This document shows positions 20,698 through 49,111 of a stretch of 60,590 bases of DNA, piece after piece. Under the pieces are notes generated by a model. The model had not been told where the DNA came from. It did no database searches and worked only from the letters and a program-made list of their open reading frames with translations. Position 1 is the first letter of the stretch. Every line of letters begins with the position of its first letter. The translations under genes were made by a program, and so were the position numbers. This stretch comes from Eledone cirrhosa. Lineage: Eukaryota. The stretch spans positions 1-60,590 of the forward strand of contig CAXHJY010000934.1 in assembly GCA_964016885.1 (NCBI GenBank), written 5' to 3'.

Positions 20698-20967
20698 CAA
20701 AAGTTCTATTTAAATTGTTGGGATACAGCAAGCAAATATTTTTATAACTGATATAAAGCACTCGACAAGTATTTGGAGTATATATCCTGATGTCTTCCAA
20801 AAGTAACGGTTGTATTTTGAAAGGGTACGTCAATGTTTATTTATAAAACTGGTATATATTGTATTTTGTCTGATGAAGGCATACCATAATTTAACATGGT
20901 ATCCTTGAAATATGTATAATAAAATATATATGGTTTTATAAATATAGTTTCCATTTGTTAATATCGT
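20698..20967. mobile_element. Non-autonomous PLE-derived insertion (minus-strand tail joined to a plus-strand hammerhead segment); family of 37081-37503
   Basis: 20698-20785 aligns with 37081-37165; 20838-20967 aligns with 37374-37503; TA tracts on both sides. Confidence 0.78.
20862..20926 (+). ncRNA. Type I hammerhead ribozyme motif
   Basis: Stem I tattttgt/ataaaata; CTGATGA 20870-20876; stem II aggcataccat/atggtatcctt; GAAA 20907-20910; short near-palindromic stem III ATATGTAT; cleavage triplet AUA; distal helix tttataaaac/gttttataaa. Confidence 0.8.
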
Positions 20968-21117
20968 ATATATATATATAATGTGTGTGTGTGTGTACGT
21001 ATGTATGCGTGTGTGTGCGCGCATATGTATGCGCGTGTGTGTATGTCGTACGTACAAGTGTCAATAAGTGAGTTTTTTTTGATTTGTTTTTTTTTGCGCG
21101 AGGACATAGAAATAATC

Positions 21118-24100
21118 GGGCTGGATGCCCGATCGCGCAGTTAAACCACTGGGAGTGAAGAACCCCTAGCCCTTGTCAGGGCATTCTTCTAGGAGAAGGC
21201 ATTTCAGGAAACTGGGTTAACTCCGACATAAAACCTGCGGCTCAGTAGTTACCGATGATGTTGATCTTTTCTTTTCGGGTTATAGCTACTGTCGCTCAGA
21301 GAGTGGGATTGGCTCAGTGCACAGTCTTTCCTCACTTTAAAAATATTCGTCACGCACAGGCATTGCACGAGTGCATTAATAATTATTATAATAGTTTACT
21401 ATTATTATTATTATTACTATTATTATTACTTTTTTTTTTTTTTTCCCATTCAATGATGTTCCAGAACAATATAAAAGAGATCATTGGCAATTTAGGTTCT
21501 GGAACAAAAAAGATAATTGGCAATAAGGGCAGCGGTCCCAGGTTATCACAGCCTGGGCCCGCTCGTCATCGTGCCATTGTAATAGAGCCAAACAAGGCAT
21601 TTAGTCTTGGCTGCTGGAACGTACGGACGCTGCTTGACAGGGATTCCTTGGAGCGTCCTGAGCGAAGGACCGCTCTTGTTGCAAAGGAGCTTCGACGTTA
21701 CGATCTTGACATCGTGGCTTTATCTGAGACGAGGTTAGCTGGAGATGGTCATCTTACAGAATTTTGTGGAGAATATACATTCTTCTGGAAAGGAAGAGAT
21801 GAAGGAACCAGAAGAGAGGCTGGGGTGGGATTTGCTGTTAAGACTGTACTTGTGAATAAATTAGAAGAATTCCCAGTAGGGATTAGTGAGCGTCTTATGT
21901 CCATGAGAATTCCGCTGGACAAAGGAAGATATGCGACCCTGGTGAGTGTGTATGCTCCAACTATGAATTCTGTCGATAAAGAAAAAGTGTCCTTTTACCA
22001 TGCCTTGAAAGGTGTTTTAAGAAATATCCCTCAGGCAGACAAAGTCATCGTGCTTGGTGACTTTAATGCTAGAGTGGGTAGGGATATTAACACATGGAAT
22101 GTAATCGGAAGGCATGGGGTGGGAAAGTGTAACAACAATGGTATGCTCCTGCTGCAGATGTGTGAGGAGCTGGATCTGTGTGTTACCAACACCATATTCC
22201 AACAAAAGAACAAATTCAAAACCACATGGATGTATCCTGCATCTAAGGAATGGCATCTTTTGGACTACGTCCTAGTCAGGATGCGTGACAGACGGGATGT
22301 GCAGTGTGTTCGTGCTCTTCGTGGAGCTGAGTGCTGGACGGACCACCGCCTGGTACGCGAAAAAGTGAAACTAATCACTAAACGTAAAATCCGGACTCCT
22401 GGTGTTGCCCTGCCCAAAAGATTGAATGCTGCTCGTCTTAAGGATAAAAATGTGAAGAGGACATTGGAAGAAGAGATGCAGGCTGCAGATCTTGGTGAGG
22501 ATTGGCCGATCCTTAAAAAGTCGGTTTATGATGTAGGCAGGCGTGTTCTGGGATTAGTGCAGAGAAAACATCAGGACTGGTTTAATGAGAATGATGTACA
22601 TATAGAAGACTTGTTGGCTGATAAGAGGCGTGCTCTGTCACGCTACTTGACGGCAAAACCACAGGAGAGGAATACGTTGCATGAGGAACTCAAGGATGTA
22701 AAATCACGTGTTAGGCGGAGTCTTTCTCAGATGAGGGATCAGTGGTGGAGTGAGAAGGCTGGTGAGATACAAACTGCATCAGATTCCAATAACACAAAGC
22801 TGTTGTACAGTCTCTTGCGTGAGGTTTATGGACCGTCTTCTTCTCTGGTGATACCGCTTCGCAGCAAGGATGGCAAAGAACTTCTTCGTGACTCACAAGG
22901 AATTCTACGAAGGTGGCGAGAGGACTTTGATGATCTTTTGAATCAGCCGTCTGTCGTCAGTGAAGATTTCCTCAATATCATTCCAGAAAGTCCTGTGAAA
23001 GTAGCTCTCGTAGAACCTCCGACGCTGGTGGAGGTTGCAGTGGCTATTTCGAAGCTGAACAGTGGAAGATCTCCAGGTATGGATGGCATACATGCTGAGC
23101 TCCTACAATATGGTGGTGAGAGACTCCTGCAACATCTTCACTCTTTGTTTGGCAGGATATGGGCTAATGAATCCGTACCTGAGGACTGGAGAGATGCAGT
23201 AATGGTGGTCTTGTACAAGGGAAAGGGTAACAGGAATGATTGTGGGAACTACAGAGGTATATCATTGCTTTCTGTCGTAGGGAAAGTTTTATGTAGGGTG
23301 CTTCTGGACCGTCTGCCGACACACATTGCAGATTGTGTTCTTCCTGAAAGTCAATCTGGTGTTCGTGCTGGACGCGGCACTACTGATATGATCTTCTCAG
23401 CTAGACAGCTCCAGGAAAAGTGCATGGAACAAGGCTTGGATCTGTATCAGGTTTTTGTCGATCTGACAAAAGCTTTCGATACTGTTAACAGAGATGCATT
23501 GTGGAAGGTTCTCCAGAAACTTAGTTGCCCTGATAAGTTCCTTGCTTTAGTTAGGTCTTTCCATGACGACATGAAGGCTTGGGTTAATGTCGGAGGTAGA
23601 ATGTCGGAGCCTATCTCAGTAAAAAATGGAGTGAAACAGGGGGATATTCCAGCACCGACCCTGTTTGCAATATACTTTGCAATGGTTTTCTGTATTGCAT
23701 TCAGGAATTGCGAGCATGGTGTTTACATCCGATATCGAAGCCCAGGCAGCATATTTAACATCAGGCGCTTTGCTGCGAAGACAAAAGTATTTACATCAAT
23801 CATAAGAGACCTCTTGTATGCAGATGATTGCGATCTTGTAGCGCACACAGAGAGTGATATGCAGCACATTTTGAATGCATTTTCTGACGCTTGCACTGCT
23901 CTAGGATTGACTGTCAGTCTCAAGAAAACCGTCGTCATGTACCAACCTGCCCCTGGTAAGCAGTACACTGAACTAAATATCGATGTGTATGGTAAACGTC
24001 TTGGAGTGGTTGATCAGTTTGTCTACCTGGGAAGCACTGTCAATCTATACAGCAACCTTGACAGTGAAATCTCACTTAGGATTAGGAAAGCAAGTGATGC

Positions 24101-48200: not shown

Positions 48201-48641
48201 ATGTGCGTGCATTAATATCCATGTGCTTATGATAATACTATATCCACATATATATGTGTGTGGGGGTGTGTGTGTGTATGTATGTTCGTAATTATGTGTA
48301 TGTTTATGCATACACGCGCGTGTGTGTGTGAGTGTACGGATATGTGTGAGTATGTGAATATGTGTATACATTTATTTCATATTTATGTGTCTATACGCAT
48401 TTTATCTGTGGATTATAAACTTACAGAGACATTAGCCTTGAATTTTTGTATTTGCATACATCTTTTTGGCATGCGTATGCATGTGAGCATATATCTTTGT
48501 ATAAATATGTGTACGAAGTTAATTACATGTATATACACACACCAAACTGCATAACATTTTTTGTATTTTCATTGGTCAATTTGAACTCCGTTCCCAAACG
48601 GACCTGAAATTTTGAATTGTTGTTATTATCAATAAATATAT

Positions 48642-48796
48642 TTCATTATTTCTGAAGACGGCATATATGTGTGTTTGGTATGTATATTTAATCTTGATAG
48701 TTTGTATAATTTTGTATAATTTTGTACATAGATCTGTTGAATATGCATGCCAATTCTAACACATATATATCCTAGAAACGATCGTTAAATAATGAA
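48642..48796 (+). ncRNA. Type I hammerhead ribozyme motif with long stem II (right arm)
   Basis: Stem I ttcattattt/aaataatgaa (10 bp); CTGAAGA 48652-48658; stem II atatatgtgt/acacatatat with a large loop; GAAA 48775-48778; palindromic stem III acgatcgt; triplet GUU. Confidence 0.72.
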
Positions 48797-49111
48797 CTTT
48801 TTTTGTTTAATATAAGGAACTGTTTCATTGTTTTATTCATTATTTTTTTAATATTTTATCTTGACTCTGTATTCCGTTTATCTTTCACCGAAAGTGATTT
48901 TTCATTGCATCTCTTCTTTCCATGATATCCGGACTACATTGAGTTCTTCATACGGATTGGACACTACCGTAAACTCTTGGTAGATTTATCTACATATATA
49001 TATATATATATATATATATATATATATATATATATATATATATATATATATATATATATATATATATATATATACATACATATATATATATACATGTATA
49101 TATATATATAT

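Follow-up and report, generated by a model that had tools for sequence, protein, structure and literature searches.

An inverted 5'-truncated copy and a tail at one end are described for Penelope-like elements (PLEs) in general, and Craig et al. 2021 (PMC8557442) regard the origin of the inverted repeats and of the one-sided tail as an unresolved question. In PAc, both target strands are cut and extended by a protein predicted to form a dimer, and synthesis begins at two internal start sites that bound the tail and are not set by homology (Frangieh et al. 2024, PMC11167929). Arkhipova et al. 2013 (PMC3846280) attribute the Penelope insertions of Adineta vaga to self-priming on an antisense template. 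Inverted arms, a one-sided tail, two in vitro start sites, and both-strand extension are already published.

Head-to-head insertions in the Eledone cirrhosa window

The window, that is, the whole stretch of DNA analyzed here, comprises 60,590 nt of Eledone cirrhosa (CAXHJY010000934.1, positions 1-60,590, forward strand). It is AT-rich and contains numerous (TA)n tracts and LINE fragments. Ten head-to-head Penelope-like insertions, named A to J, each lie in (TA)n; eight are located inside 20698..48993, with I and J outside. All ten display an inverted 5'-truncated copy and a one-sided tail, the tails of C, D, and E being assigned from position alone. The pairs are oriented head-to-head because hammerhead-like motifs face outward wherever they are found. 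The candidate motifs are scan matches in A, B, D, E, I, and, weakly, J, and were placed by hand in G and H. No hammerhead is present among the best 150 of 152 Rfam matches; the matches, all below threshold, are AT-rich hairpin or microRNA look-alikes only and were set aside. The elements and their parts are as follows (a strand is given for single arms).

20698..20785, minus strand: A, tail-only arm; aligns to the B tail; tail hairpin 20757-20779
20786..20967, plus strand: A, tail-less arm; hammerhead-like motif 20870-20918; stops at the fixed site
30316..30722: H; tail-less left arm, 104-nt spacer, tailed right arm (the longer one); tail 30648-30722 with hairpin 30653-30691
33104..33310: D; tail 33104-33174 on the left arm; symmetric centre 33244/5; hammerhead-like motif
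35211..35908: C; tail 35211-35331 on the left arm; 4-nt centre loop 35622-35625
36569..37038: E; tail 36569-36669 on the left arm; 165-nt spacer containing the hammerhead core of the left arm; tailed arm longer
37081..37335, minus strand: B, tailed arm; tail 37081-37160; hairpin 37139-37161; TA patch 37161-37168; hammerhead-like motif 37218-37267
37336..37503, plus strand: B, tail-less arm; perfect palindrome centred at 37335/6
37546..37727: F; tail-less left arm, 3-nt loop 37600-37602, tailed right arm; tail 37649-37727 with hairpin 37654-37680
38454..43937, minus strand: G, tail-less arm; 5'-truncated RT and C-terminal GIY-YIG, frame 42110-43937
43394..43937, minus strand: G, RT stretch of 544 nt present in the tail-less arm only
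43938..48859, plus strand: G, tailed arm; frame to 45203, 18-nt deletion; hammerhead-like motif 48642-48796
48860..48993, plus strand: G, tail of 134 nt; hairpin-like pairing 48864-48947
49563..50120: J; tail-less left arm, 118-nt spacer, tailed right arm; tail 50035-50120 with hairpin 50037-50085
51270..51620: I; tail on the left arm, hairpin 51308-51331; tailed arm longer; snap-back hairpin and 14-nt repeats at the centre

Near-perfect palindromic centres are present in four of the ten elements, with loops of 0 nt in B and D, 3 nt in F, and 4 nt in C. In A, the tail segment matches the B tail and stops within the TA patch (~20785), with the inverted body directly after it. The claim of the sequence-only reading that these two segments do not overlap is borne out, since they share at most the TA patch. 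Its coordinates for the giant element G, in which the tail is confined to the right copy and 544 nt of RT to the left copy, are likewise confirmed.

The two arms of G (38451-43393 and 43938-48859) are 99.1% alike, and the 544-nt spacer between them (43394-43937) is the continuation of the RT frame of the left arm. Outside repeats and ends, the arms differ by ~5-7 substitutions and the one 18-nt deletion, and G is considered young on account of these few differences. On one side, its centre has 0 nt of microhomology. The G frame consists of 609 amino acids with YRDD and YIG motifs. The predicted protein has 962 homologs among 7,614 candidates, the best named one from Argonauta hians, and Pfam returned no match for the frame of either arm. 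The translation contains the CxCX5C linker, CxxC, and CxH and lacks CCHH, in agreement with the definition of the Hydra clade. RWK and DKT motifs occur in the consensus of the G homologs, G being truncated ahead of that region. Judged from motifs and homologs in the case of G, and from hammerhead, tail, and target rather than protein in the case of the short elements, the window elements are classed as endonuclease-positive Penelope-like, G with Hydra-clade endonuclease motifs. G exceeds 5.6 kb and its left arm alone spans 5.5 kb, compared with "generally under 3 kb" in the Hydra clade (PMC8557442); the length of the left arm is due to a 3.6-kb microsatellite-rich 3' region, whose long microsatellite arrays are present in both arms. 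Diverged internal duplications (72-77%) of the end of the G ORF are found at 41190-42163 and in the right-arm mirror.

Several other features of the window are recorded. A further Hydra-like 3' fragment (10370-11440) carries a broken GIY-YIG frame, seen by eye, a hammerhead-like motif at ~11315, and a tail hairpin at 11387-11409; no inverted partner was seen. An open endonuclease-RT LINE frame of 1,249 amino acids (21249-24998, Pfam), with C-terminal zinc-finger-like motifs recognized by eye, stands right after the TA tract of A. Related LINE copies with RT and zf-RVT matches occupy 14231-20126 and 51670-54494, and one opposite-orientation pair is 95.7% alike. The stretch 30741-31572, which we take to be Helitron-like, comprises three pieces of the J family in mixed orientation and ends in a tail-less 29-bp hairpin (31512-31572). 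A short repeat occurs in two copies that are 89% alike (3618-3723 and 36136-36242), with a hammerhead-like core by eye, and a 200-nt island at 36309-36511 is flanked by TA tracts. At the centre of I (51455-51520), a small snap-back hairpin is followed by ~4 copies of a 14-nt unit, resembling templated end-joining filler.

The fixed tail-less end and a pair of hairpins

The tail-less arms of A and B stop after the same base (20967 and 37503), as the sequence-only reading had stated for two copies of one family, the exact break falling anywhere inside a TA patch of 5-8 nt. The reads mapped to the tailed arm of B derive from three samples of one study, and contigs from another. Among the loose ends listed, those in (TA)n at 37161 account for 5,356 of 35,019, 6,086 of 38,682, and 8,073 of 44,790 mapped reads in the three samples, in a reduced-representation library in which such counts differ from copy numbers and centres are poorly sampled, and for 31 of 4,703 contigs in the other study. 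In each of the three samples, two direct joints lead back to 37167, indicating tandem use of the same site. Opposite-strand joints vary in position. The positions of joints at 37230 and 37282 are soft, as they coincide with subfamily divergence points. Molecules also pile up at 37096 and 37257, which was put down to restriction sites used for the library and discounted: AATT is present at 37096, and a common variant creates GCATGC at 37253-37258.

Relatives of these elements were collected by an alignment-based scan, which yielded 78 loci from metagenomes and 16 from genomes. No relative was found when metagenome contigs were scanned with a single protein, or in viral contigs. The second animal, G001, is a 12-Mb assembly with animal-like DNA. 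Hammerhead matches number 59 in it, against 4 in the control, and a rescan recovered 57 of the 59. It also contains 17 tail-less ends belonging to seven families, which fall within 1 nt per family. Together with the reads at 37161, these ends confirm the predicted fixed outer breakpoint; the predicted variability of the inner breakpoints is seen in the window centres, the read joints, and G001. Neither randomly placed tail-less ends nor random loss of tails, which would have spoken against the idea, is observed.

Animal-type Penelope elements in assemblies filed as bacterial (G001 contigs C3, C61, C575, and C721; locus L080 on contig C27 of G002) most likely represent host contamination. The 55-nt terminal direct repeats of many metagenome contigs were taken to be assembly overlaps and left uncounted. 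Among the relatives, a tail-only insertion consisting of hairpin 1 and tail has a (TTAA)n run on one side and a TA tract on the other (L189, 3425-3500), and a tailed copy of one family is followed by a short tailed family-X copy as a cross-family direct tandem (L186, 1859-2123).

The sequence-only reading also held that tail-less arms end at ATAT-like patches, and that these anneal to (TA)n and so choose the site. The first part holds to a degree. The TA match is 4-5 nt in six of nine window families (B, C, D, E, F, and J), but no more than 3 nt for G, 2 nt for H, and 1 nt for I; over the nine families the match exceeds that of random joining (combined P ~7e-4). The second part fails: the choice of site is not made by TA annealing, since these arms also contain TA runs of greater length that are unused as ends (18 of 11-41 nt in the G 3' region, and one of 9 nt in B) and the fixed end of family X has a TA match of ~1 nt.

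What the site follows is a hairpin, not the TA match. A motif of the form RCTC...GAGY at the start of every G001 tail was spotted by eye and then tested on the window. A tail hairpin is located within 16 nt of the end in six of nine window families (expected 0.08) and in seven of seven G001 families (expected 0.16), with offsets of -1 to 6 nt between the tail-less end and this hairpin, termed hairpin 1; the strict form is not matched in C, D, and E. In full-length relatives, identified by a hammerhead upstream of the ORF start (37 of 94 loci, 29 of them non-redundant), the hairpins are located in the RNA downstream of the hammerhead and upstream of the ORF start. Two such hairpins, bulged and covarying, are present in 22 of the 29, one in five, and none in two, compared with no shuffled sequences with two; since the loci share kinship, they do not amount to 29 independent trials. 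The two hairpins are spaced by 55-83 nt (median 63, 21 relatives), and the mean pairing probability is at least 0.5 for 36 of 42 hairpins. In a set of 30 hairpins chosen by their four outer pairs, the outer pair is G-C in 27 and A-T in three, a 2-nt bulge comes next, and the first inner pair after the bulge is T-A in 15 and C-G in 14. The inner pairs, which were free of the selection rule, average 2.67 of four against 1.34 in shuffled sequences. In families X and W, the only two checked, the tail ends 6 and 8 nt ahead of hairpin 2; the window copies stop ahead of hairpin 2, which is not visible there. The tail is taken to be the interval between the hairpins because tail-less ends lie 5' of hairpin 1 and tail ends lie 5' of hairpin 2.

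Central junctions and models of priming

Across 19 pairs from the window and G001, the tail-less arm is longer in eight, the tailed arm in five, and the centre is symmetric (within 5 nt) in five, with one pair unclassed. Of the window elements, A and G have a longer tail-less arm, and E, H, and I a longer tailed arm, the latter call being judged by the position of the hammerhead 5' stem; B, C, D, and F are symmetric, and J is unclassed. The nine G001 pairs divide into six with a longer tail-less arm (including one with its outer end off the contig and one with 305 nt of filler), two with a longer tailed arm, and one symmetric pair. Pair counts exclude a family-X pair with its partner off the contig and a broken tailed arm (L185), a pair in which no tail or TA end was identified (L199), two loci with cut ends (L079 and L080), and the window hairpin K.

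Exactly one tail is present in 18 of 19 pairs (P 4e-5 under free site choice), in a set where the off-contig pair is replaced by the nested pair L195, both of whose arms are tail-less. Three lone tail-less insertions have no inverted partner (L188, L191, and L194), and three lone copies are tailed. Two L1-type inversions, at sites that are internal and not fixed, consist of abutting pieces with a 1-nt gap and a ~21-26-nt overlap, respectively. Non-overlapping arms of this type are found in A, in two of nine G001 pairs, and in these two internal inversions, but not in G or most others. Any target-site duplication around a whole insertion would be masked by the (TA)n flanks. The expectation that arms are joined by 1-5 nt of microhomology is met inconsistently: overlaps of 1-6 nt occur at four of nine G001 centres and filler at four of nine, microhomology for W and Y being taken from BLAST overlaps because an exact-match count halts at substitutions.

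Hairpin-positioned twin priming on one RNA is the best reading of these data, with a probability of roughly 60%. One protein would dock on each hairpin of a single multimeric RNA, and the GIY-YIG domains would cut both strands of the (TA)n target. Each target 3' end would then prime cDNA at its own site, a few nucleotides of TA pairing assisting priming without choosing the site, and the trailing polymerase would displace the strand ahead. End-joining of the two facing cDNAs at the centre would produce two head-to-head arms, of which one and only one is tailed. A stall of the tail-primed trailing polymerase level with the leading one, or behind it, would leave the tail-less arm longer, as in A and G; if both polymerases reach the same RNA end, the centre would be symmetric; and trimming ahead of joining may account for the remaining geometries. 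In three pairs with a longer tail-less arm, the tailed arm halts within 12 nt of the second site, which is suggestive but not significant (P 0.11).

Under independent truncation, five symmetric centres among 19 would be rare (P 3e-3 to 4e-6); fully independent truncation is therefore ruled out, and the symmetric centres require either one shared RNA end or some fold-back. Some of them may be fold-backs. In a pure fold-back, which is unlikely, a tail-primed cDNA snaps back and copies itself, a cut or a switch to the target ends the copy at a fixed site short of the tail, and spacers on either arm arise by later asymmetric deletions at the unstable palindrome centre. One tail per pair is built into this scheme, which also accommodates the symmetric centres and the five pairs with a longer tailed arm; junction palindromes have been taken as self-priming (PMC3846280), and the tail has been attributed to endonuclease resolution (PMC8557442). 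Small deletions erase the central symmetry of perfect palindromes (PMC8701086), and fold-back with later central deletion fits the direction of the spacers, as a split of eight to five is no different from even (P 0.58). The sequence-only reading, which favoured twin priming over fold-back, is on this point partly sustained. The eight pairs with a longer tail-less arm are unreachable by fold-back of a tail-primed cDNA and demand a second event, including in arms of <200 nt, but the same logic does not reach the five symmetric centres, and G alone fails as an argument, since long perfect palindromes lose central symmetry by deletion and its spacer could be such a later asymmetric deletion. Fold-back further leaves unexplained the lone tail-less insertions, the two abutting L1-type inversions, and the like distance of both ends from like hairpins, and in vitro work on another clade shows the polymerase starting at the tail-less site (PMC11167929).

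Priming of both strands on two separate RNAs, with independent truncation and a second site found by TA annealing, is rather more doubtful still. It would suit the 4-5-nt TA patches at six of nine window ends, the spacers in both directions, and the filler at several centres; it conflicts with the frequency of symmetric centres and with the unused TA runs in G and B, and free site choice predicts at most half mixed pairs instead of the 18 of 19 observed. The least probable of the alternatives is a mixture in which asymmetric pairs arise by twin priming and symmetric pairs by fold-back at comparable rates. Both classes are present in both animals, and the centres of H and I contain snap-back filler; such a mixture, however, requires two routes to identical fixed outer ends, and a fold-back is inseparable by sequence alone from two cDNAs that end at the same base.

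The balance tips to hairpin-positioned twin priming because of the short, young pairs with a longer tail-less arm, the lone tail-less insertions, the abutting inversions, and the in vitro extension of both strands from two start sites (PMC11167929). It is weakened by the symmetric centres and the published argument for self-priming (PMC3846280), by L195 and the lack of a strict hairpin in C, D, and E, and by a tail end tied to hairpin 2 in two families only. A broader proposal, at slightly less than even odds, is that in Hydra-clade elements a duplicated protein-docking hairpin seats two RTs on one RNA, such that two-strand priming would be normal, the tail would equal the hairpin spacing, and the inverted repeat would be the expected product. 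Overall, the interpretation reached from the sequence by itself is partly supported.

Relation to known systems

The Hydra clade shares with these elements a C-terminal GIY-YIG with CxCX5C, CxxC, and CxH and no CCHH, a hammerhead, and insertion in (TA)n; G001 family Z matches the published Hydra-2_Amil by eye (PMC8557442). Tails differ in length, at 65-134 nt in the window and 58-73 nt in G001 against 30-40 nt in PMC8557442. Twin hairpins are visible in the published Hydra-1_Ajap sequence too, and word searches of the text and supplement of PMC8557442, as far as available, found neither 'hairpin' nor 'stem-loop'. PAc, a Poseidon element of Anolis, is alike in having two tail-bounding starts, extension of both strands, and a predicted dimer; it belongs to another clade, and its starts lie inside one AC-rich stem-loop within the ORF (PMC11167929). 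Neither inverted insertions nor a pair of repeated hairpins are dealt with in the main text on PAc. Penelope of Adineta vaga resembles the present elements in its head-to-head repeats, palindromic junctions, and optional tail, but the self-priming model predicts neither pairs with a longer tail-less arm nor lone tail-less insertions (PMC3846280).

A literature search, with most subscription papers outside its reach, found neither twin priming as a source of Penelope inversions nor the twin hairpin. The hairpin pair and its position relative to the insertion ends appear to be new. The pair provides a concrete cis element and a prediction for each site that can be tested by the in vitro assay of PMC11167929. 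The hairpin is also a short motif with which to find and orient such elements in repeat annotation.

In L1 twin priming, reportedly set out by Ostertag and Kazazian in 2001, the second target strand primes internally. The internal priming site of L1 is variable, and the arms are non-overlapping. Internal priming by the second strand would be the feature in common with the present elements, A and two G001 pairs are near non-overlapping, and the two G001 inversions have the abutting geometry. Unlike in L1, the site here is fixed per family, and the arms overlap by up to 4.9 kb.
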